From contig CAYFZI010000001.1 of assembly GCA_964347635.1 (NCBI GenBank), positions 29,322 through 93,321 of the forward strand: 64,000 nt of DNA, given 5' to 3'. Origin of the DNA: an uncultured Dehalococcoidia bacterium (GTDB lineage: Bacteria > Chloroflexota > Dehalococcoidia > Bin125). The notes beneath the pieces were generated by a model. It ran no database searches. It was not told the DNA's origin and saw nothing but the letters and a program-made list of their open reading frames with translations. Below, in pieces: positions 27,204-43,119 of this stretch. A program made the position numbers and the translations under genes. Each line of letters starts with the position of its first letter. Position 1 is the first letter of the stretch.

Positions 27204-27806
27204 TCAGTTGGCGGCGAACTGGCCGATGTTTTCGTGCCCCAGCGCGTCGTTGTTGGGGTCGATCAGCTCATCCGGCAGCGGCAGTGTTTGCAGCCAGGCC
27301 CAGACGTCGGCGATGTCTTCGACCGGGATCTGCTCAGCGGTGAAGCGCTGCATGACACCGCGCGGACGGCGGTATTGGCTGAGTACGCCGTGGATGTCGA
27401 GCCCCGTTTGGGCGATGGTCGGCCCGACGATCCCTTCGCCGACGTCGCCGTGGCAGACCTGACAGCCGTTTGCGATAAAGAGCTCGGCGCCGCGCACCGG
27501 GTTGGCGCCGGCCCGCATCGCTTCCTCATCGATCTCCTCGATTGGCAGCGGTGCGGCCTCGGCGCAGGTTTCCGGCGAGCGGTCGACCAGTTCGAGCGAC
27601 GGGTCGGCCTCCTGGCCGGCCTCGATGCAGAAGAGGCCGGTGGCCCACAGCTCGGCGGTCGCCGCGTTGGACTCGACTCGCCCGCCCAGCTCGTGCCGGT
27701 CGGCGCCTTTGGCGATCGCATAGCCGACCAGCGCGAAGATGCCGGCGATCAGCAGCCCGAAGACCATCAACAGCCCGAACGATTGAGGAATTCCCTGGGT
27801 TGGCAT
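27204..27806 (-). CDS. Membrane-anchored c-type cytochrome
   Basis: N-terminal TM helix and a single haem-binding CQVCH motif. Confidence 0.75.
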   Translation of the reverse strand: MPTQGIPQSFGLLMVFGLLIAGIFALVGYAIAKGADRHELGGRVESNAATAELWATGLFCIEAGQEADPSLELVDRSPETCAEAAPLPIEEIDEEAMRAGANPVRGAELFIANGCQVCHGDVGEGIVGPTIAQTGLDIHGVLSQYRRPRGVMQRFTAEQIPVEDIADVWAWLQTLPLPDELIDPNNDALGHENIGQFAAN

Positions 27807-28822: not shown

Positions 28823-29734
28823 TTACGGTACGGCTCCGCGTGTGCGGGCGACGGCGGCGGCGAGCGCCGCTGCATCCGCCGCGCCCGTCAGCCGTTCGCG
28901 GTAGACGCCGCTGCGGTCGATCAGCAGCAGCTCCGGCAGGCCGTCGATGCGGTAGTGGACGGCCGCGGCCGCCTCGCGGTCGATCACGCTGGGGATGCCC
29001 AACGCGGCTTCGACAAAGGCCCGCGCGGCTGCGCCCGGTGCGTCGTAGACGTTGATCGCCAGCACGGCCAGATCGCCCTCGGCGCCGCCAAGGCGGCGCC
29101 ATAGCTCGTCGAGCTGCCGCAGCAGCTCGAGATCACCCGTGTTCCAGGAGGCCCAGAAGACCAGCACGACCGTCTTGCCCCGGAAGTCGGAGAGCGCCGC
29201 GCTCCCTTCGCCTTCCAACCGCGGCAGCGTGAAGTTGGGCGCCGGCTGGCCGCGCTGCAGCCGCGCCGCGCCCGCTTCGATGCTGGGCGGGATCTGGTCC
29301 GCTGCAGCCCGAATCGAGGCCGGCGAGCTGCGCAGCCAGCGATCGACGGCCGCCGCCTGCCAGCTGAAGAAGCGGCGCTCCGGCATGATCGTGCGCACCG
29401 CGCCGCCCAGCTGCACGGACAGCGCGACTTCGACTCGGCCGTCGGCGTTGCGCCGCACCCGCACCCGCAGCGAGGCTGCGCCGTGCTCCACCGCCGAGGA
29501 CTGCAGCCAGCGGTCAACGGGCGCCTGCGCGTAGGGGAAGAAGCGGGCGCGGGGGCAGCGCCGCTGCGACTCTTCGGTCAGCTCGAGGCAGAGCTCGACA
29601 CGGCCGTCCTGCGCTTTGCGGGCAGCGATGCGCACCTCGACGGTATCGCCCTGCGCGTCGACTGCGGCGCCGCCGAGCAGCGCGGCCAGCAGGCCGAGCA
29701 GCGCCGCCGCCAGCGCCAGCCGCGCCATGCTCAA
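28823..29734 (-). CDS. Secreted protein: 2x novel N-repeat + redox-inactive TlpA-like thioredoxin-fold domain
   Basis: Signal peptide, then two copies of the EVRIAARKAQDGRVELCLEL...FFPYAQAPVDRWLQSS repeat, homologous to the N-terminal domain of the 38683-42984 array. The C-terminal domain aligns to TlpA/ResA (PAPNFTLP...GKTVVLVFWASWNTGD...GLPELLLIDRSG), but the WCxxC active site is replaced by WNTGD. Confidence 0.7.
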   Translation of the reverse strand: MSMARLALAAALLGLLAALLGGAAVDAQGDTVEVRIAARKAQDGRVELCLELTEESQRRCPRARFFPYAQAPVDRWLQSSAVEHGAASLRVRVRRNADGRVEVALSVQLGGAVRTIMPERRFFSWQAAAVDRWLRSSPASIRAAADQIPPSIEAGAARLQRGQPAPNFTLPRLEGEGSAALSDFRGKTVVLVFWASWNTGDLELLRQLDELWRRLGGAEGDLAVLAINVYDAPGAAARAFVEAALGIPSVIDREAAAAVHYRIDGLPELLLIDRSGVYRERLTGAADAAALAAAVARTRGAVP

Positions 29735-30264
29735 GCGGGGTTCATCGAGAAGTTGTGGTTGCCCAGGAATGCGCCGGCCCCGGCCACCGCGATGGTCAGC
29801 AGCAGCCCCGTGATCGAGAGCACGATCGTCAGCCGCCGCACTCGGACCAACTCAGTGCTGTCATCGGCCGCGGCCGCGGCTTGCCGCGCCAGCTCGAGCT
29901 GGCGCGGGCCGAACACGAACTGGTGCAGCCCGATCGCCGCGATCATCGCCGCCCACAGCGCCATCTTCACGACAAAGATGATGCCCCAGCGGGCATCGTA
30001 GATCGATGCGCCGAAATTCTCCGCCTGGTCGAGCCGCGGGTCGACCATCGCGCCCCCGCTGACCACGATGATGATCATCGCTGCGATCCCGAGCCGGCCG
30101 AAGCGCCGCGTGAAACCCTCCATCACATGGAGCCAAAACTCGCGGTCGCCCGCGGCGCGCAGCGCGGGAACCACCGCCGCGGCGGTCAGCACCTGGCCGC
30201 CCAGCCAGACCGCGACAGCGATCACGTGCAGCCAGATCAGGATCGAAAGCACTGACTCCGACAT
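29731..30264 (-). CDS. CopD-like / DUF2269-like integral membrane protein
   Basis: Four TM helices. The stop overlaps the downstream start (ATGA). Start is ambiguous between ATG 30264 (GGAG 9 nt upstream) and GTG 30273. Confidence 0.55.
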   Translation of the reverse strand: MSESVLSILIWLHVIAVAVWLGGQVLTAAAVVPALRAAGDREFWLHVMEGFTRRFGRLGIAAMIIIVVSGGAMVDPRLDQAENFGASIYDARWGIIFVVKMALWAAMIAAIGLHQFVFGPRQLELARQAAAAADDSTELVRVRRLTIVLSITGLLLTIAVAGAGAFLGNHNFSMNPA

Positions 30265-30314
30265 CGCCAACACTCCGCTCGAGAAGGCCCTGAGAAGGTT
30301 ATCCGAGCGCCGCG

Positions 30315-32325: not shown

Positions 32326-33279
32326 ATGGCGAAGCCGTTCCTCAAGTGGGCGGGCGGCAAGACGCAGCTGCTCCCGCAGCTGCTGGCGGCTGCGCCGGCC
32401 CAGATCAGCACCTACTACGAACCGTTCCTCGGCGGCGGCGCACTCTTCTTCGCGCTCGATCGTCAGAATCGCTTTGAACGCGCAGTGCTCTCCGATCTGA
32501 ATGCAGATCTGATCAATGCATTCGTCCAGGTCCGTGACGCTGTCGACGACGTGATCGTGGCGCTCCGGACGCATGAGGCACAATACGTCGGAAAGACAGT
32601 GCGACGTGCTGACTATTTCTACAACGTGCGGGGGCAGACATACATGTTTGCTCCTGAGCAGGCAGCCCGGATGATTTTTCTCAACAAAACCTGCTTCAAT
32701 GGCCTATATCGCGTCAATAGCCGCGGCGAGTTCAACGTCCCTCACGGCCGCTATGCCAACCCTACTATCTGCGACGAGGACGGCTTGCGCGCCGTTTCCG
32801 AAGCCCTGCAAGGCGTCGAGATCCGCCTGTCAGATTTCGAAGATGCGGTCCGCGACGTCAACCGTGGGGACTTCGTCTATTTCGATCCGCCATATATCCC
32901 CGTAAGCGACACGTCTAGTTTCACGGCGTACACGGCAGACTCTTTTGGTCTCGACGAGCAGCATCGGCTCGCAGACATCGCAATGGAATTGACCGCGCGT
33001 GGTGTCAGCGTTTTGCTTTCAAACTCCAACCACCCTGATGTGCAAGCTCTCTACCATGCACGGGGAATGTCAACGAAGGCTGTTGCCGCTGGGCGGGCGA
33101 TCAACTCTGTAGGCACAGCTCGTGGCTCGATCACTGAATATCTCATTCGCCCCAAACAAGCCTCGCGCTCACGACGAACACCAGCGTCTATTCGAGATCG
33201 CGCCCGAAAAACGACCGAAGCCAGACGTCCAATTCGCCAATTTCAATGGCGAAGCCGGTTGCGCGCAAGAAGCCTTTGA
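32326..33279 (+). CDS. dam: DNA adenine methyltransferase, Dam family (GATC-type N6-adenine MTase)
   Basis: MAKPFLKWAGGKTQLLPQLL..., EPFLGGGALFF (motif I) and DPPY (motif IV). The gene lies in a ~55% GC island. The last ~35 aa are Arg-rich and overlap a convergent ORF, so the true stop may be earlier. Confidence 0.88.
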   Translation: MAKPFLKWAGGKTQLLPQLLAAAPAQISTYYEPFLGGGALFFALDRQNRFERAVLSDLNADLINAFVQVRDAVDDVIVALRTHEAQYVGKTVRRADYFYNVRGQTYMFAPEQAARMIFLNKTCFNGLYRVNSRGEFNVPHGRYANPTICDEDGLRAVSEALQGVEIRLSDFEDAVRDVNRGDFVYFDPPYIPVSDTSSFTAYTADSFGLDEQHRLADIAMELTARGVSVLLSNSNHPDVQALYHARGMSTKAVAAGRAINSVGTARGSITEYLIRPKQASRSRRTPASIRDRARKTTEARRPIRQFQWRSRLRARSL

Positions 33280-33570
33280 ACTCGATAGTGAATTTATCGC
33301 CGGCAAGCACGACGATCCCGCGGATTGGCCAAGTGCGCATGTCTTCGATCTGCGCTGGAATCTTCTCATACGTCGTCCCACTGGTTCCCTGATACCGACA
33401 CAGAATGCCGAGGCGTTCGCCAGTCTCGGGATCAGAGGCGACCACATCAATGACCCGATTGCTTCCCCAGACGGTCTTCCCAACAGGCACTTTGCGTTGC
33501 GCGAGCAGCTGAAGGCTCTCTACCGTTTCAGCGACCGTTTTCACGAGTTCGTTGTGTGACTTGACCATCA
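32450..33570. mobile_element. Low-GC (~55%) island carrying a Dam-family MTase and a small coupled ORF; putative horizontally acquired module
   Basis: Composition drops from ~70% to ~55% GC across the 3' two-thirds of dam and the whole 33188-33568 ORF. No integrase or inverted repeats were seen. Confidence 0.4.
33188..33568 (-). CDS. Hypothetical small protein (127 aa) within the low-GC island
   Basis: ATG at 33568 sits immediately after the maoC-like stop, with a GGAGGAG RBS inside the upstream gene's last codons (ccGGAGGAGtgaGTGATG). About 55% GC. No family recognised. Confidence 0.5.
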   Translation of the reverse strand: MVKSHNELVKTVAETVESLQLLAQRKVPVGKTVWGSNRVIDVVASDPETGERLGILCRYQGTSGTTYEKIPAQIEDMRTWPIRGIVVLAGDKFTIEFKGFLRATGFAIEIGELDVWLRSFFGRDLE

Positions 33571-33571
33571 C

Positions 33572-35320: not shown

Positions 35321-36520
35321 ATGAGTCGAACCCCGGTGCCCCACAGCGAGTGGCTCGAGGCCGCGGAAGCAGTTGGGCCGACCCTGCGCGGGCATGCCGA
35401 GCAGAACGAGCAGCTGCGCCGCCTGGCCCCGCCCGTGGTCGAGGCGCTGCGTGCTGCGCGGTTGTTCTCGATCTTCGCGCCGACCGAGGTTGGCGGCGGC
35501 AACCTCGATCCCGCTGGGCACCTCGAGGTCATCGCGGCGCTGACAGCGCACGACGGCTCGGCCGGCTGGTGCGCGATGATCGGCGCGCACGAATCGGCCT
35601 GGCTCGGCGCGCGTCTGCCCGAGTCCGGCATCGAGCGCGTCTTTGGCGCCGCGCAGTGGCCGATCACAGCAGGGCAGCCCTTTCCCGGCGGCGAAGCGCG
35701 GCCCGCGCCGGGCGGCTGGCGGCTCAGCGGACGCTGGGGCTGGGGCTCCGGCATCCACCACGCCGATTGGGTGATAGCGCAGGCGCGGATCGTCGATGGA
35801 CCTGGCGCAGAGCCAGGTGCAGAAACAGGCGCGGCCGAGAGCGAGGCGGGGCCGCCTGAACTGCTCACCGCCGTTGTCCCGCGCGCGCAGGTCGAAATCG
35901 AGGACACCTGGCATGTCGCCGGGATGCAGGGCACAGGCAGCAGCCACTACCGGCTCGAAGACGAATTCGTCAGCGCGGATTTTCGCCTGCAGCCCTTTGA
36001 GCAGCCGCCCCTGCGCGGCTCCGGCTGGGTCGCGCGGCCGACCCTCACCTTCCTCTGCCCGGCAGCCTTCGGGATCGCGCTGGGGCTGGCGGAGCGCGCG
36101 ATCGAGGAAGCGGCGGCGCTCGCCGCGACGCGTGTGCGGCTCGGCGCGCGCGCGCCGCTGGCCGAGCGCGAGCTCTTCCAGCGCGAGCTGGGCGAGCTGG
36201 CCGCAACCGCGCGCGCGATCCGCGGGCACGGCCTCGAGCTCTTCCGCGGGCTGGCTGAGGCGCCCGTGCGCAGCGTCTCCGACGCCGTGCAGATGGACGA
36301 CACCGCACGCAGCGCCGCCGCCTGGGCGACGCGCAGCGCCGAGTCGGTCGTGCGCACCGCCCACCGCGCCGCCGGCGGCGACGCCGTCTTCCTCGATCAC
36401 CCCCTCCAGCGCCTGCTGCGCGATGTGCAGACCGCCTCCCAGCATGTGGTCGTTTCCGACAACGCCTTCCAGCGCCTCGGCCGCCACACGCTCGGCCTGC
36501 CGGTGCGGCCCGGCCTGTGA
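35321..36520 (+). CDS. Acyl-CoA-dehydrogenase-like flavin-dependent monooxygenase/hydroxylase (group D), paralog 1
   Basis: ACAD type-2 fold without the CoA-thioester catalytic base pattern. TWHVAGMQGTGSSHYRLEDEFV is typical of HsaA/DszC/HpaB-like two-component monooxygenase oxygenases. Confidence 0.7.
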   Translation: MSRTPVPHSEWLEAAEAVGPTLRGHAEQNEQLRRLAPPVVEALRAARLFSIFAPTEVGGGNLDPAGHLEVIAALTAHDGSAGWCAMIGAHESAWLGARLPESGIERVFGAAQWPITAGQPFPGGEARPAPGGWRLSGRWGWGSGIHHADWVIAQARIVDGPGAEPGAETGAAESEAGPPELLTAVVPRAQVEIEDTWHVAGMQGTGSSHYRLEDEFVSADFRLQPFEQPPLRGSGWVARPTLTFLCPAAFGIALGLAERAIEEAAALAATRVRLGARAPLAERELFQRELGELAATARAIRGHGLELFRGLAEAPVRSVSDAVQMDDTARSAAAWATRSAESVVRTAHRAAGGDAVFLDHPLQRLLRDVQTASQHVVVSDNAFQRLGRHTLGLPVRPGL

Positions 36521-36582
36521 CCCGCCGAAGAGCGTGCGGATCGCTATGCTGGGTACCTGCTGAGAACCGAGGAGTGCTGGCG

Positions 36583-37116
36583 ATGCGCACTGCACTCGAG
36601 GTCGCTAAGTACTTTCTCAGCCTCGCCGCTGAACAGGGCGACGAGCTGAGTCAGCTGAAGCTGCAGAAACTCTGTTACTACGCGCAGGGCTACAACCTGG
36701 CGATGCGCGGCCAGCCGCTGTTCGACGACCCGATTGAGGCATGGGAGAAAGGCCCGGTCGTGCGGGGCCTGCGGCGTCATTTCGGGCCTCACGGTGAGAA
36801 CCCCATCCCTGCCGATCCGACGTTTGACCGAGAGGAGGCCTGCGGCGTTCGGGAAAGCGCGCTGCTGCACGCCGTCTACCGCGAGTTCCGCGCTGCGAGC
36901 GGCTCCGATCTCGTGACCGCGACTCACGGCGAACGGCCGTGGCAAGAGGCGCGCCAGAATGATGCGAACCTCTGCACCAATACCATGCGCGACCACTTCC
37001 TGCAGCGGCTTGAGTGCTCCGAGCGGCCCGCGCCGGTCTACCGATACTCACTGGAAGAGTCCTTGGCGCGCTCTGCAGCCGATATCGCCGCAGGCCGCTA
37101 CCGGCCGCTTCGGTGA
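36583..37116 (+). CDS. Panacea (DUF4065) domain protein, SocA/PanA antitoxin-like
   Basis: MRTALEVAKYFLSLAAEQGDELSQLKLQKLCYYAQGYNLAMRGQPLFDDPIEAWEKGPVV matches the Panacea domain signature. GAGGAG RBS. Sits between the two monooxygenase paralogs. Confidence 0.7.
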   Translation: MRTALEVAKYFLSLAAEQGDELSQLKLQKLCYYAQGYNLAMRGQPLFDDPIEAWEKGPVVRGLRRHFGPHGENPIPADPTFDREEACGVRESALLHAVYREFRAASGSDLVTATHGERPWQEARQNDANLCTNTMRDHFLQRLECSERPAPVYRYSLEESLARSAADIAAGRYRPLR

Positions 37117-38682: not shown

Positions 38683-39678
38683 TCAGTAGTGGCCGCAGCG
38701 CGCGATGTTCTGCTGCAGCGGCGAGTCGAACAGCCCCAAGATCTCGAAGAACACTGTGAACCGCTCGCCGCGGATCTCGACGTGCATCCGCACATCCGAA
38801 GCGCCGCGCAGCTGTCCTGCGAATGCGCGCGGCGCGTCAGAGCTCACCGCGCCGCGGGGTTCCTCGGGGCCGCCGTGGATGTGCCATTTCGCTGAGCTGA
38901 GCGCTCCGCCGTCCACCGCCCAGAACACGGACGCCTCCGGAAACTCGACCTCGCCCAGCGGCGGCAGCCAGTACAGCTGCGCTATGAACTCCCGGTTGCT
39001 GCAGATCAAGGCCAGCCGGGCCCGCTCGTGCCCCTCGACGCCGGTCTTCTCGGAGATCACAGCGACGATCGTTGTCAGGTCCCTCTGCCCTCCGTCGTAG
39101 ACGGTGCCGTAGAGGATGCCGTCGGCCGTGGCGTCGCTGTCGACCGCGATCGGCTTGAACGCCGGGTCGACGGTCGTCGCCCACCAGGATTCCGCTGCTG
39201 CTGCGGCGGGGTCGAACTGCAGCGCGATCGGCGACGTCCGCAGCCAGCGGAAGTGCCTCGTATTGGAGGGGAAGTAGCGCCTGGGGGGCAGCATCAGCGC
39301 GCTCCACCAACCGTCGTTCCGGAGCTGCTGGAGGCCGAATTCCACGCGCCCGCCGCCGTCCCGCCGCATCGCGATTCGCACCTCGGTGATCGAGACGCTG
39401 CCGCCGCTCTCGATCCGCAGCTGGATCGGCGTGCCCTTATACCAGCGCGCGTGCGCCGCGTCTGCCCCAAACAGCCAGGTGCCGTGCTCCTCGTAGCTGC
39501 CCCAGGCGCCCCCGGCGCCGCGCCGCTGCAACCCCAATTCATAGCCGCCGCCAATGTGGTTGCGTGCGGCGACCCGAACCTCCAGCTCCAGCGGTGCGGC
39601 CGCCGCGCGCTCCGCAAGCGCCGCCGCAGCAAGCGCCGACAGCAGCACAAACACGGCCAGCAGTACGGCCTGCCCCAT
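38683..39678 (-). CDS. Novel secreted paralog A: signal peptide + 2x N-repeat + C-domain ending CGHY
   Basis: Signal peptide MGQAVLLAVFVLLSALAAAALA. Two N-repeats: EVRVAARNHIGGGYELGLQRRGAGGAWG... and EVRIAMRRDGGGRVEFGLQQLRNDGWW...RRYFPSNTRHFRWLRTSPIAL. The C-terminal domain (LTTIVAVIS...LICSNRE...FEILGLFDSPLQQNIARCGHY) is shared with the three upstream genes. Confidence 0.75.
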   Translation of the reverse strand: MGQAVLLAVFVLLSALAAAALAERAAAAPLELEVRVAARNHIGGGYELGLQRRGAGGAWGSYEEHGTWLFGADAAHARWYKGTPIQLRIESGGSVSITEVRIAMRRDGGGRVEFGLQQLRNDGWWSALMLPPRRYFPSNTRHFRWLRTSPIALQFDPAAAAAESWWATTVDPAFKPIAVDSDATADGILYGTVYDGGQRDLTTIVAVISEKTGVEGHERARLALICSNREFIAQLYWLPPLGEVEFPEASVFWAVDGGALSSAKWHIHGGPEEPRGAVSSDAPRAFAGQLRGASDVRMHVEIRGERFTVFFEILGLFDSPLQQNIARCGHY

Positions 39679-39806
39679 CCGCAGTACAGCTCCAACAGCC
39701 CTAGGCCTGCACGCACGCATCGGCGCACTCCTATTCAAGCTCACAGCCAGGCAGCGCCCTACCCTACCGCGCCTGCGCAGCGCGGCGGCGCGCCTATTTC
39801 CTGTCG

Positions 39807-40829
39807 TCAGTACTCGCCGCAGCGATCGAGGTTGGGCTGTATGGGGGTGTCGAAGAGGCGGGCGACCGCGAACTCGAATGTTTCGAGGTCGCCGTCGTTG
39901 TCGCGGCCGCGGATCACGACCGTTTCAGCGTTGCGCAGCTGTTCCGCAAAACCGCGGTCATCGGGCGGGCTGGCCGCGGTGCTGAGGTTGCCGTCATCGA
40001 CGATCTCCCATTTCGCCGCGACCGCGTCTGCTTGGTTAATCCGATACTCCATGTCGAGTTCCCGCTCCAAAAACGTGAACGGCATGCCGGTCACGACGAC
40101 CTGAAAATCACCCTCGAAACAACCGAGCAGGAGCATTGCGGGCTCGATTTCGAACGAACTGGCCTCAGTGTGCCGGACGCTGATCAGGCTGGTCAGAGCG
40201 TCGTCGATCGGGTCGCGGGTGGTTGTGTAGAAGACATACTCGCCGAGTTGTGTAACGCTCTCGTCCTCGTAGGGGGCGAACGCTTCGTCCTCCTCGGATC
40301 CCGCCGCATCTTCTGCATCCTGAGCCGCTGCTGCTTCGTCTTGCTCCCCATCCTGCTCATCGGCCCCCGGCAGCGGGTCGCCGGCGGCCCAGTCTGCAGG
40401 CGGTATCAGAATCTCGCGGCCGATATTGAGGATAGTGTCGAGCTCCAGATCCTCATTGAAGGCGAGCAGATTGTTGATGTCGACGCTGTACCGCCGGGCG
40501 AGCCGATAGAGCGTGTCGCCGGCGCTGACGGTGTGCACGGCGGCGGGCTGTATCGGTTCGGGCTGGGGCTGTTCCTGCTGAACGGCCGCGTCCGCCTGCC
40601 CGCCCGCATCCTCGGCAGCAGGCTGCGGCTGCTCCTCCGCGGGTTGAGCCTGTTCCTGCGGTTCGGGCTGCGGCTCCGGCGCGGGGCGCTGCGACTCGAT
40701 CCGCGTCTGCTCAGCGCCGTTCTGCTCCTCATCGTCGCCGCTCCTGCCGACGATCACCACCAGAGCAACAAAGCCGACCAGCAAGAGCAGCCCGATCGCC
40801 GCGATGATGCCGAGGCAGCCCTGCGCCAT
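39807..40829 (-). CDS. Novel paralog B: TM anchor + Pro/Gln/Glu-rich linker + LysM domain + C-domain ending CGEY
   Basis: N-terminal TM helix (IIAAIGLLLLVGFVALVVIV). LysM (HTVSAGDTLYRLARRYSVDINNLLAFNEDLELDTILNIGREILIPP). C-domain (LTSLISVRHTE...LLLGCFEG...FAVARLFDTPIQPNLDRCGEY). Its ATG overlaps the upstream gene's stop as TGATG. Confidence 0.78.
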   Translation of the reverse strand: MAQGCLGIIAAIGLLLLVGFVALVVIVGRSGDDEEQNGAEQTRIESQRPAPEPQPEPQEQAQPAEEQPQPAAEDAGGQADAAVQQEQPQPEPIQPAAVHTVSAGDTLYRLARRYSVDINNLLAFNEDLELDTILNIGREILIPPADWAAGDPLPGADEQDGEQDEAAAAQDAEDAAGSEEDEAFAPYEDESVTQLGEYVFYTTTRDPIDDALTSLISVRHTEASSFEIEPAMLLLGCFEGDFQVVVTGMPFTFLERELDMEYRINQADAVAAKWEIVDDGNLSTAASPPDDRGFAEQLRNAETVVIRGRDNDGDLETFEFAVARLFDTPIQPNLDRCGEY

Positions 40830-42040
40830 CAGTACTGCCCGCAGTAGTCCAAATTGGCCTGAACCGGCGTCTCAAACAGGCCCGCCAGCGGCAACTGTAT
40901 GTGCTGGCTGCCGCTGCCTGGGTTGATGTGGAATTCGAGCACGCGCGCTTGGCGCAGCTGCGCGATGAACGCAGCGTCGTCATCCGGGCTGATCCCTGAC
41001 TCTACCGAGAAGACAAACATCCAACGATGCGTGGTCGCTGCTCGACCGTCAAGTCGAACACTCGTAACTGGCGTACTTTCTATCTCGGTGATCCAGAGCC
41101 AGAGCGCGCTGTCATTGAGAATGATATCAAGCCGATCGACGTCACAGATCATGTGCAGTGTGCCACTGCCTCTTCTGAGAGTGACGCCTGTGGTCAGGGC
41201 TGTTGGATCCAGATGCGGGCTCACCCAGTATTCGATATCGATGAAGACGAGACCGTTTGTCTCGCCCAAGAGGGCAACCCCTCCAGGTGTGGAACGTCCG
41301 CAGTAGTCGATGTTCGGCTGGGCCGGCGTAGTGAAAAGCCCGGCCAAATCTATCGTCGCACCGCCAGAGCTCCCTCCTCCGAATTGAACGGTCAGCGTCT
41401 GTGAACGCTTGAGCCGTTCCACAAACGTCGCATCGTCGTCGGGGCTGTACCCAGAGGTGGCACCGCGGTAGGAGCGCCAATTGACAGTTTCGATTTCGCC
41501 CCCGTCGAAGCGCAGCAAGATCACTTCACCGTCGCCGTAGAAAAACCGATAGTCCCAGTCAACCAATACATCAAACTTGCCTTGGGCGCAGACCAGTTCA
41601 ATCGAAAAATCGTTGGCATGCGTGCGGACGATGGTGGTGAGCGTGTCGCTCAGGGGGTCGCGCTCGACTTCGTACCAGAGATCCGCTTCGCCCGTGCCGA
41701 TCGTCTCTCTGGCGGGTTTCCAGCCCGCCGGCGGATTCGGCCCCGGCTGCGGGCGCGCCGCAACAGGCGCCGGCGCCGGCGCGCCGACTGTGAGCGGCGA
41801 GCTGTTCAGCCAGCGATCATGGTCGATTTCGGCGGGGAGGTAGCGGGCTTGCGGGAGTTGGCGCTCGCCCCAGTCGCCGCCGCCGTGGCGCTGCTGCAGG
41901 CCGAACTCAGTGCGACCGTCGTCGAGGCGCCGGACGCTGATCCGAACCTCGGTGTCCCCCTCCACAGCGCGGACTGTGAGCGTCGCGATGCCGGCGATCA
42001 GCGCCAGCACCACCAAGCCGATGACGCTGTTCCTGGCCAT
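40829..42040 (-). CDS. Novel paralog C: signal/anchor + N-repeat + Pro-rich linker + 2x C-domain (ending YCGRS / YCGQY)
   Basis: MARNSVIGLVVLALIAGIATLTVRAVEGDTEVRISVRRLDDGRTEFGLQQRHGGGDWGERQLPQARYLPAEIDHDRWLNSSPLTV. Two tandem C-domains: ...LTTIVRTHANDFSIELVCAQG...DLAGLFTTPAQPNIDYCGRS and ...HMICDVDRL...LPLAGLFETPVQANLDYCGQY. Confidence 0.78.
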   Translation of the reverse strand: MARNSVIGLVVLALIAGIATLTVRAVEGDTEVRISVRRLDDGRTEFGLQQRHGGGDWGERQLPQARYLPAEIDHDRWLNSSPLTVGAPAPAPVAARPQPGPNPPAGWKPARETIGTGEADLWYEVERDPLSDTLTTIVRTHANDFSIELVCAQGKFDVLVDWDYRFFYGDGEVILLRFDGGEIETVNWRSYRGATSGYSPDDDATFVERLKRSQTLTVQFGGGSSGGATIDLAGLFTTPAQPNIDYCGRSTPGGVALLGETNGLVFIDIEYWVSPHLDPTALTTGVTLRRGSGTLHMICDVDRLDIILNDSALWLWITEIESTPVTSVRLDGRAATTHRWMFVFSVESGISPDDDAAFIAQLRQARVLEFHINPGSGSQHIQLPLAGLFETPVQANLDYCGQY

Positions 42041-42174
42041 AGCCCGCGCCTTTCCAGCAGCTCACTCGCCGAATGGAGGAGGCAAGCGGGAAAGCTACAG
42101 CCCGAAAGCTGCGCGATCAACCGCCGCCGTGCTCTGCATTGCCGCCGCCCGGATGAACGCGGGGCGGCCTTGGC

Positions 42175-42984
42175 TCAATTGGCGCCCGCAGTGCTCTGCC
42201 CGCAGTTAAGAAGGTTGCGGTGCACCGGAGTCTCAAGCAGGCCTTCAATGTCCAGCGTGATTGGGCTGGGAGATCTCGACCACAATCTGATCGTGAGTGT
42301 GGAGCGGCCCCGCAAGCTGTTCAGAAATGGCCCGGCATCGCTTGGCCCATAACCTGCAGTGCCTATGGCCGGCCATGTGCTCTGCTGCAACGGGCCGTCG
42401 TCAATGCGCCACTCAACCTCTTGGGTGCCGCTGACGTAGTACCAGTCGTCATCGGCTACATACACACGCAGTCGGTCGCTGCACAAGATTATCAACTCGA
42501 GCGGATCCTCCAGAAATCCAGGGCCAGGGTCTTCCTCACTAGTCCGAACTATGGTGCTCACCGTGCCATCAAACGGATCTCGGGATACGAAGAATCGAAT
42601 ATTCTCGCTGGTCTCTCCACCGGCCCACACCAGCCCTTCCGTCGGCAGTAGGGAGATGCCCCCTTCCAGCAAATGGCCGTGGATCGCGGAGGCCGCGCTG
42701 TCGGCCGTCAGCTCATCCTCGGCGGGGCCCAGCGTGAGCGGTGAGCTGTTCAGCCAGCGATCGTGGTTGACTTCGGCGGGGAGGTAGCGGGCTCGCGGGA
42801 ATTGGCGCTCGCCCCAGTCGCCGCCGCCGTAGCGCTGCTGCAGGCCGAACTCGGTGCGGCCGTCGTCGAGGCGCCGGACGGTGATCCGAACCTCGGTGTC
42901 CCCCTCCACAGCGTGGACTGTGATCGTCGCGATGCTGGCGATCAGCGCCAGCGCGAGCAAACCGATGACGCTGTTCTTAACCAT
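42175..42984 (-). CDS. Novel paralog D: signal/anchor + N-repeat + C-domain (ending NCGQS)
   Basis: MVKNSVIGLLALALIASIATITVHAVEGDTEVRITVRRLDDGRTEFGLQQRYGGGDWGERQFPRARYLPAEVNHDRWLNSSPLTL is ~90% identical to the N-terminus of C. The C-domain is ...VSTIVRTSEED...LIILCSDRL...DIEGLLETPVHRNLLNCGQSTAGAN. ATG at 42984. Confidence 0.75.
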   Translation of the reverse strand: MVKNSVIGLLALALIASIATITVHAVEGDTEVRITVRRLDDGRTEFGLQQRYGGGDWGERQFPRARYLPAEVNHDRWLNSSPLTLGPAEDELTADSAASAIHGHLLEGGISLLPTEGLVWAGGETSENIRFFVSRDPFDGTVSTIVRTSEEDPGPGFLEDPLELIILCSDRLRVYVADDDWYYVSGTQEVEWRIDDGPLQQSTWPAIGTAGYGPSDAGPFLNSLRGRSTLTIRLWSRSPSPITLDIEGLLETPVHRNLLNCGQSTAGAN

Positions 42985-43119
42985 ATTTTGTGTTCTCTCA
43001 ACCGTTCGCACGCCGAATCGCAGGCGGCAAGCGGGAAAGCTACAGCCCGAAAGTTGCGCGATCAACCGCCGCCGGCGCAGCGAGCAGGAGGGGCGCTGGG
43101 GCGCGGCGCGCCTGCGCTG

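Follow-up and report, generated by a model that had tools for sequence, protein, structure and literature searches.

The 64,000-nucleotide stretch of DNA analyzed here (contig CAYFZI010000001.1 of an uncultured Dehalococcoidia bacterium; in the following, the window) carries on its minus strand a gene for a protein with an export signal, two tandem copies of a short repeat that we call the N-repeat, and a C-terminal thioredoxin-fold domain of the TlpA/ResA class from which both active-site cysteines have been lost (Table 1). Gene and protein are referred to as Trx-like below. The GC content at third codon positions (GC3) of this open reading frame (ORF) is 0.89 and matches that of other genuine genes in the window, which has an overall GC content of about 70%. 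A segment equivalent to the signal-like N-terminus is present in all orthologues of our alignment. Two start codons come into question. The TTG at 29734 overlaps the TGA stop codon of the upstream gene for a CopD-like membrane protein as TTGA, while the ATG two codons further on, 2 nt beyond this stop, was selected as start by a gene caller in the closest relative. The original prediction on this DNA, made by a model from the sequence alone, had described an ATGA overlap; the two genes indeed abut, but their junction reads TTGA.

Table 1 Position of the Trx-like gene, its parts, its neighbours and the N-repeat paralogues in the window (aa, amino acids; pLDDT, predicted local distance difference test; TM, transmembrane)
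Feature	Position	Strand	Remarks
Whole ORF of the Trx-like gene	28823..29734	-	303 aa/codons, uninterrupted; TTG start 29734, alternative ATG 29728; Cys-less TlpA/ResA-like domain and two N-repeats
Sec-type signal peptide	29654..29734	-	aa 1-27; hydrophobic core, then A-x-A-like site (...AAVDA/QG); read from sequence
N-repeat copy 1	29486..29641	-	aa 32-83; 63.2 bits against canonical-only profile; pLDDT >90
N-repeat copy 2	29312..29476	-	aa 87-141; net charge +6; 47.5 bits against canonical-only profile
Linker between repeat pair and thioredoxin fold	29255..29311	-	aa 142-160; low model confidence, pLDDT 58-76
TlpA/ResA-class thioredoxin-fold domain	28847..29254	-	aa 161-296; Pfam, PDB profile, Foldseek
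W-N-T-G-D replacing W-C-x-x-C	29132..29146	-	W197-D201; profile alignment and codons
Invariant Pro267	28934..28936	-	aligns with cis-proline of the TlpA/ResA substrate-binding loop
CopD-domain membrane protein, upstream	29731..30273	-	180 aa, 4 predicted TM helices; Pfam CopD 43.8 bits (above threshold)
Membrane-anchored monohaem cytochrome c	27204..27806	-	two genes downstream; functional link doubtful
N-repeat paralogue	38683..39744	-	two N-repeats and a ~135-aa two-Cys C-terminal domain
Neighbour without N-repeat	39807..40829	-	TM anchor, acidic linker and LysM, same two-Cys C-terminal domain
N-repeat paralogue, 403 aa	40829..42040	-	one N-repeat and two copies of the two-Cys C-terminal domain
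N-repeat paralogue	42175..43065	-	one N-repeat and one two-Cys C-terminal domain

In full agreement with the original prediction of a C-terminal TlpA/ResA-type thioredoxin fold devoid of both active-site cysteines, Pfam, profile searches of the PDB and structure modelling all point to the same class. Residues 161-283 match the Pfam families AhpC-TSA with 43.7 bits (cutoff 26) and Redoxin with 38.5 bits (cutoff 26.6). A profile of the Trx-like family retrieves the PDB chains 3hdc (4e-21), 3kcm, the ResA chain 4nmu and the Bacillus subtilis ResA series (1su9), and the family segment FWssWdaag aligns exactly onto FWaSWCpyC, FWATWCPPC and FWGTWCKPC of the PDB chains. The AlphaFold2 (AF2) model, computed from a 25-sequence alignment with a mean pLDDT of 82, superimposes in Foldseek on ResA-type structures with target-normalised template modelling (TM) scores of 0.86-0.91, a root mean square deviation of about 1.9 Å and 22-29% identity. 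The best NCBIfam matches are ResA (51.1 bits, cutoff 170), the ResA-like selenoprotein family, TlpA (32 bits, cutoff 230) and DsbE (26.7 bits, cutoff 123), all of them far under the curated cutoffs, as is StoA (18.7 bits, cutoff 210). Across the alignment of 25 family sequences 68 columns are invariant, and the residues concerned include F193, W194, S196, W197, N228, Y230, D231, D252, Y261, R262, P267, E268, D273, G276, R279 and R281. In the sequence alignment, Pro267 corresponds to the proline of the LP(T/D/E)T motif in 3hdc, 3kcm and 4nmu, and would be cis like this counterpart. The position of ResA Glu80 is occupied by an invariant leucine, and the thioredoxin domain contains no invariant cysteine, histidine or methionine. 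Both the fold and the sequence place the C-terminal domain in the TlpA-like superfamily. Since it lacks WCxxC and falls short of the curated family cutoffs, the labels TlpA, ResA and DsbE oxidoreductase should not be applied to it.

The residues W197-N-T-G-D201 that stand in place of the active-site motif are encoded by TGG AAC ACG GGT GAT, with neither a cysteine codon nor an in-frame TGA. Among 5.8 billion proteins searched, 24 full-length orthologue clusters (51-94% identity) were found, and cysteine is absent from both positions in every family member (25 of 25), the common pattern being FW[AS]SW[NDS]x[GA][DGAS]. The same is true of three distant orthologues, approximately 30-35% identical, which were found via synteny with the CopD-like gene and read FWASWAPFV (L030), FWSSWAPYV (L032) and FWSSWSPND (L033). 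The nearest matches outside the family (P0025-P0027) all have WCxPC. Because all orthologues are Cys-less while the nearest outgroups keep WCxPC, the loss is old, derived and fixed and does not represent a lesion. Conservation of the Cys-less state had been set as a test beforehand; it is borne out by the lack of any orthologue with CxxC and by a Redoxin score above its cutoff. The four positions of the former CxxC motif differ among the orthologues (N/D/S, any residue, G/A and D/G/A/S, respectively), and as they vary freely no new catalytic residue has become fixed there. We found no description of this Cys-less TlpA-like family in the searchable literature.

Several other identities can be dismissed. 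A sequencing or strain-specific lesion is not compatible with the agreement of all orthologues, and a cysteine codon needs two base changes from the asparagine codon and one from the aspartate codon. A selenoprotein of the ResA-like type (WAxxUGC) is ruled out by the uninterrupted ORF, the absence of an in-frame TGA and an NCBIfam score of 37 bits against a cutoff of 300. The protein is not to be filed as a peroxiredoxin either (AhpC/TSA or BCP, with PxxxT/SxxC), since the thioredoxin domain is without cysteine and NCBIfam peroxiredoxin matches are marginal (E 0.03-0.07). A copper chaperone of the Sco/SenC type (CxxxC plus a distal histidine) is rejected on the grounds that there is no SCO1-SenC match at E≤1 and no invariant cysteine or histidine in the domain. 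A redox-active paralogue nearby is rejected likewise, as the window holds no second thioredoxin-like gene. Disulfide reductase activity fed by CcdA/DsbD would be chemically excluded for a domain without cysteines. As a separate observation, nine of the 25 orthologues (P0010, P0011, P0013, P0016 and P0019-P0023) have an additional pair of cysteines, neither of which is found without the other. The first lies in the linker (..DGCAL / GGCAG) and the second where the thioredoxin domain begins (E/G/T/A-C-AVSL), an arrangement that points to a disulfide bridge between linker and thioredoxin fold in this subgroup.

The N-repeat proved to be a large family. When 1.84 billion cluster representatives (50% identity clusters) were searched by full HMMER with a 57-position profile, 1,541 proteins matched at E≤1e-3 and 1,024 at E≤1e-10; the full HMMER search was required, as a word-index search with the repeat alignment gave no match. 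Among the best 148 of the 1,541 proteins, exactly two copies are present in 129 and four copies in 14. The repeats are N-terminal in 131 of these 148 proteins and lie at the extreme C-terminus in 14, and 126 of the 148 have a hydrophobic N-terminal segment. In 94 of these proteins scanned with Pfam, the passengers comprise RCC1 (20), LRR (10), trypsin-like peptidase (4), ankyrin (3) and SLH (3) domains, together with fn3, PD40 and cadherin. The canonical repeat is basic and rich in arginine and tryptophan, with the consensus EVRIvARrLaDGRvEFaLQqR..D.WGeR.LP..RFFP...A.vgRWL.SSPLt, in which R4, A7, G13, E16, F17, W26, P32, R35, P38, W46, L47 and S49 are conserved at 94-100%.

No Pfam family covers the N-repeat in the 94 proteins, and NCBIfam has none either. 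A Foldseek search of the PDB with the model of the repeat pair returned nothing at E≤1e-3 (best TM score 0.33), and a profile search of PDB sequences produced only noise. With tblastn, a canonical repeat pair found no match in 72,556 plasmids. The only name obtained when N-repeat clusters were looked up for names and taxa was 'RCC1 domain-containing protein [bacterium]', and no description of the repeat was found in the searchable literature. The N-repeat is thus new as an uncatalogued family and is the more novel element of the protein compared with the Cys-less thioredoxin domain. The original prediction had already called it novel, which is correct in so far as it is uncatalogued, but with 1,541 clusters it is not private to this genome. 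Its domain architecture suggests that the N-repeat pair serves as a module of general use for anchoring or targeting outside the cytoplasm. The promiscuous extracytoplasmic use in more than 1,500 clusters fits the earlier idea of a targeting or partner-binding unit.

Membership of the Trx-like repeats in this family was assessed with an N-repeat hidden Markov model derived from unrelated proteins only (the canonical-only profile). Both copies score far beyond chance (Table 1), and because the scoring profile was built only from unrelated proteins the assignment is not circular. Most near-invariant residues are present in the Trx-like repeats, while F17 is replaced by leucine or valine. Repeat 1 contains two family-invariant cysteines, Cys49 (29588-29590) and Cys60 (29555-29557), which probably form a structural disulfide. 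Judged by sequence, the repeats represent a divergent N-repeat subtype. In the AF2 model, the repeat pair is all-beta and forms one folded unit (pLDDT 93, predicted TM score 0.85). The order of a signal segment (aa 1-27) and a tandem pair is shared by 116 of the 131 family members with N-terminal repeats. The two copies are similar, and the similarity extends to segments of three further ORFs at 38.7-43.1 kb of the window.

The upstream CopD-like protein matches the NCBIfam CopD model with only 30.4 bits (cutoff 195), and the match covers no more than positions 152-287 of 295. It has four predicted TM helices where full-length CopD has about eight, and a CopC domain is absent from the window region. 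Its invariant residues include His13, His114, His170 and Met63, Met73, Met101 and Met107, and the first TM helix bears the motif LHxxxxxxWxGG. With 58 orthologue clusters, it is more widely spread than its Trx-like partner. The original prediction had also placed a cytochrome c gene about 1 kb away. The distance is right (1,017 nt downstream of the Trx-like gene), but a gene for a cytoplasmic enoyl-CoA hydratase (ECH) intervenes.

A scan of one genome per species revealed orthologues in five Dehalococcoidia metagenome-assembled genomes of about 3.2-3.4 Mb. The conserved gene order is acyl-CoA dehydrogenase (ACAD) - MaoC - Dam methylase - purA - CopD-like - Trx-like - ECH - cytochrome c - alpha/beta hydrolase, and the abutting arrangement of the CopD-like and Trx-like genes is kept in most lineages. 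Note that the compared genomes are closely related, with flanking housekeeping proteins 94-96% identical and numbers of synonymous substitutions per site (dS) of 0.3-0.9, and that the conserved order is for this reason weak evidence for a functional unit. It is the tight gene spacing, and this only, that suggests a tie of the Trx-like gene to the CopD-like gene; with the cytochrome c, the connection is weak. The remainder of the window encodes proteins of acyl-CoA metabolism, peptide ABC and major facilitator superfamily (MFS) transporters and a penicillin amidase, and it includes a small island of restriction-modification-like character; oxidase genes and cytochrome c maturation genes are absent from it.

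Ratios of nonsynonymous to synonymous substitution rates (dN/dS, omega) were calculated by the Nei-Gojobori method for the target against the five genomes, with dS similar across genes. The values are 0.43-0.54 for the whole Trx-like gene, 0.38-0.65 for its repeat region and 0.33-0.40 for its thioredoxin domain, compared with 0.11-0.21 for the CopD-like gene, 0.14-0.23 for the cytochrome c gene and 0.01-0.10 for the genes encoding ECH, PurA and ACAD. Against the closest relative (95% identical, dS approximately 0.08), omega is 0.31 for the Trx-like gene (bootstrap 95% interval 0.17-0.60), 0.03 for purA, 0.04 for ECH, 0.06 for CopD-like and 0.08 for cytochrome c. The Dam methylase gene reaches 0.33 in this comparison, a value derived from six substitutions only and with an interval of 0-1.88. 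The Trx-like gene is the fastest-evolving of the neighbouring genes compared and yet clearly under purifying, if relaxed, selection.

We propose, with slightly less than even confidence, that the Trx-like protein is an exported, non-catalytic 'pseudo-oxidoreductase' in which the repeat pair would hold or direct the protein and the redox-dead TlpA-type fold would offer a binding surface, probably beside the CopD-like protein. After cleavage of the signal peptide, the tandem N-repeats would fold as one compact beta unit and act as the generic extracytoplasmic anchoring or targeting handle that elsewhere carries RCC1, LRR, ankyrin, protease and other passengers. The passenger in this case would stem from a TlpA/ResA-type reductase. 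Its fold, its FWxSW segment and its loop with the cis-proline, which hold the substrate polypeptide in the TlpA/ResA family, would have been retained. As both cysteines are lost, it could bind a partner, but it could not exchange disulfides. The overlapping or abutting start and stop codons suggest that the protein is made together with the small CopD-domain membrane protein, which would be its most likely partner or working site. It would then be an accessory, fast-evolving component of the cell surface and not a core enzyme. The binding function, the anchoring function and the partnership with the CopD-like protein are what we infer from this arrangement. A bolder version is less likely. It sees the tandem N-repeat pair as an undescribed surface-anchoring or host-matrix-binding domain of uncultured Chloroflexota-type bacteria, among which some lineages have been reported to be devoid of peptidoglycan genes. 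The domain would display many different passengers, eukaryotic-like repeat proteins as well as the Cys-less thioredoxin fold, and the Trx-like protein would be a surface pseudo-oxidoreductase that captures a specific partner protein at the CopD-like protein.

A number of observations speak against a pseudo-oxidoreductase working beside the CopD-like protein. The invariant residues of the thioredoxin domain largely belong to the generic TlpA-family core and so attest to a maintained fold but not to a maintained binding site. The canonical Trp26, conserved at 94%, is missing from both Trx-like repeat copies, and the ligand of the canonical module may not be bound by repeats lacking this residue. 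The Trx-like gene evolves 3-10 times faster than its neighbours, and drift towards loss would give the same picture. In the lineage represented by L028 and L029, whose CopD-like protein is 68% identical, the CopD-like gene is directly followed by those for the hydratase and the cytochrome c, and the Trx-like gene is lacking. In L031 (6534-7503), an indel of 1 nt relative to L030 splits the Trx-like gene into ORFs of 97 and 231 aa. Since the gene is absent from L028/L029 and split in L031, the CopD-like protein does not need the Trx-like protein. The split gene, residing on a 7x long-read contig, is possibly a pseudogene or an assembly error, and we have not used it as evidence for a pseudogene. 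The original prediction of an envelope module comprising the CopD-like protein and the cytochrome c was not supported: what speaks for it is synteny among close genomes (dS <1), which tells little about function, and one lineage keeps the series CopD-ECH-cytochrome c without the Trx-like gene.

Some of these findings can also be explained by a relic in decay, i.e., a former TlpA-type reductase that lost its cysteines, has become functionless and drifts under weak constraint, persisting through linkage alone or because there has been too little time for its deletion. This explanation, which we regard as unlikely though as the most serious alternative, would account for the highest dN/dS among the genes compared (0.31-0.54 against 0.01-0.23 for CopD-like, cytochrome c, ECH, purA and ACAD), the missing gene in L028/L029, the possible frameshift in L031 and the variable residues at the former CxxC. 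On the other hand, the ORF has remained intact across no fewer than 28 distinct lineages with identities as low as approximately 30%, both domains have an omega significantly <1, and GC3 is typical of expressed genes. The 68 invariant columns, the invariant cysteine pair of repeat 1 and the invariant cis-proline are not expected of a decaying gene either, and the indel in L031 may be due to assembly error.

Less probable still is a host- or matrix-interaction factor, in which the repeat pair or the fold would bind an environmental or host molecule such as an anionic polysaccharide or a protein of the host, the evolutionary rate would reflect diversifying pressure on a surface-exposed protein and the CopD-like protein would be irrelevant. 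Eukaryotic-like repeat proteins have been reported as typical of sponge symbionts and as a trait of sponge-associated Chloroflexi (PMC6306507), and the N-repeat travels with the eukaryotic-like interaction domains RCC1, LRR, ankyrin, cadherin and fn3. Its basic composition, rich in arginine and tryptophan, and the elevated dN/dS, which is higher in the repeat region than in the thioredoxin domain, point in the same direction. However, no site with omega >1 was demonstrated, and in most lineages the gene stays tightly coupled to the CopD-like gene. SAR202-type sponge Chloroflexi have been reported to lack the genes for peptidoglycan synthesis (PMC6306507); this is mentioned as context only, as the source organism could not be assigned to this group.

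The vicinity of the CopD-like gene also brings to mind copper handling. TlpA and CopD have documented roles in the biogenesis of oxidase copper centres: TlpA reduces CoxB and Sco, and the CopD domain has been implicated in the copper supply of the oxidase (PMC9145763). As in CopC-CopD/CtiP and Sco-TlpA copper-centre assembly, a CopD-domain protein is found here beside an extracytoplasmic TlpA-like protein, with a membrane-bound c-type cytochrome close by, and the CopD-like protein contains invariant histidines and methionines. The Trx-like protein could accordingly be a remnant of CopD/TlpA/Sco-type oxidase copper loading that receives metal or apoprotein outside the cytoplasm together with the CopD-like protein. 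We consider this improbable. Unlike the known systems, the CopD-like protein is fragment-sized (180 aa, four TM helices), no gene for CopC, Sco or PCuAC is present, and the thioredoxin domain is without metal-ligand residues, as no cysteine, histidine or methionine is invariant. The lack of oxidase and cytochrome c maturation genes in the window and the dispensability of the Trx-like protein where CopD and the cytochrome c persist argue in the same sense. Finally, a cryptic enzyme, i.e., a thioredoxin fold with newly acquired thiol-independent catalysis, appears highly improbable even though the polar residues S196, N228, Y230, D231, D252, R262 and E268 are invariant near the former active site, because most of these positions are generic to the TlpA family, the replacements of the CxxC residues vary freely and dN/dS is high for an enzyme.

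Comparison with known proteins helps to place the proposed pseudo-oxidoreductase. Its fold class, the AP.F hairpin, the FW.SW segment, the cis-proline loop and export to the outer face of the membrane are shared with TlpA/ResA/DsbE(CcmG) oxidoreductases (ResA 1su9, Geobacter 3hdc and 3kcm, Bradyrhizobium japonicum TlpA 4txo). The Trx-like family differs from them by the lack of both catalytic cysteines, by leucine in place of Glu80 and by scores far below the NCBIfam cutoffs; moreover, where TlpA, ResA and DsbE have a plain membrane anchor or a lipobox, the Trx-like protein has a two-repeat N-terminal module. Thioredoxin folds that bind polypeptides after losing one or both redox cysteines are known from the b and b' domains of protein disulfide isomerase (PDI) and from the SxxC chaperedoxin CnoX/YbbN. 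By analogy, a similar binding role may be played by the Trx-like domain, which differs from these proteins in compartment and lineage and has no sequence relation to them beyond the fold. The N-repeat, in turn, is reminiscent of surface modules of the SLH, LysM and SH3b type in being short and tandem, in following a signal peptide or residing at the C-terminus and in being combined with many unrelated passengers. In one set of paralogues, it even takes the same slot as LysM. In contrast to these modules, it has no match in Pfam, NCBIfam, PDB sequences or Foldseek, and SLH co-occurs with it in just three of 94 proteins.

The Trx-like family provides a clear natural case of an extracytoplasmic TlpA/ResA-type oxidoreductase that has turned redox-dead and has nevertheless long been retained. 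Cases of this kind make it easier to distinguish binding from redox chemistry as roles of the thioredoxin fold, and they warn against automatic labels such as 'TlpA family disulfide reductase' or 'peroxiredoxin'. The N-repeat may matter more. It is uncatalogued, occurs in more than 1,500 clusters, has a confidently predicted and apparently unmatched fold and resides on secreted RCC1, LRR, ankyrin and protease proteins. The identity of its ligand would show how uncultured bacteria hold proteins at their surface.

The N-repeat paralogues of the window belong to a group of four adjacent genes (38683-43065) that share a C-terminal domain of approximately 135 aa with two invariant cysteines and the end ...P.Q.NLD.CG.Y. 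The slot in front of this domain is filled by one or two N-repeats in three of the four genes and by a TM segment plus LysM in the fourth. The two-Cys domain itself has no match in Pfam or NCBIfam. The region stands out by a GC content of 0.63-0.64 and a GC3 of 0.73-0.79, both of which are below the rest of the window.

Three further observations concern the surroundings of the Trx-like gene. In the lineage without this gene, a protein of 393-412 aa is encoded between purA and the CopD-like gene (L028 4728-5966, L029 382-1563). It has an acidic middle part rich in proline and alanine, a low-complexity stretch rich in RGG/RDD and a Cys-rich C-terminus (CNCGCKC...CQLCECGRADCGC), with no Pfam match on record. 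Two convergent genes at 32326-33571 of the window, one for a Dam-type N6-adenine methyltransferase (MethyltransfD12 in relatives) and a small one of the PDDEXK_11 nuclease-like type, lie in a segment of lower GC content (0.616). The methylase is approximately 63% identical between genomes with flanking genes 90-96% identical, and the segment looks like a fast-evolving restriction-modification-like island. A gene with a SocA/Panacea domain, and therefore antitoxin-like, resides on the plus strand at 36517-37116 between ACAD paralogues and has a counterpart in the closest relative, L034.

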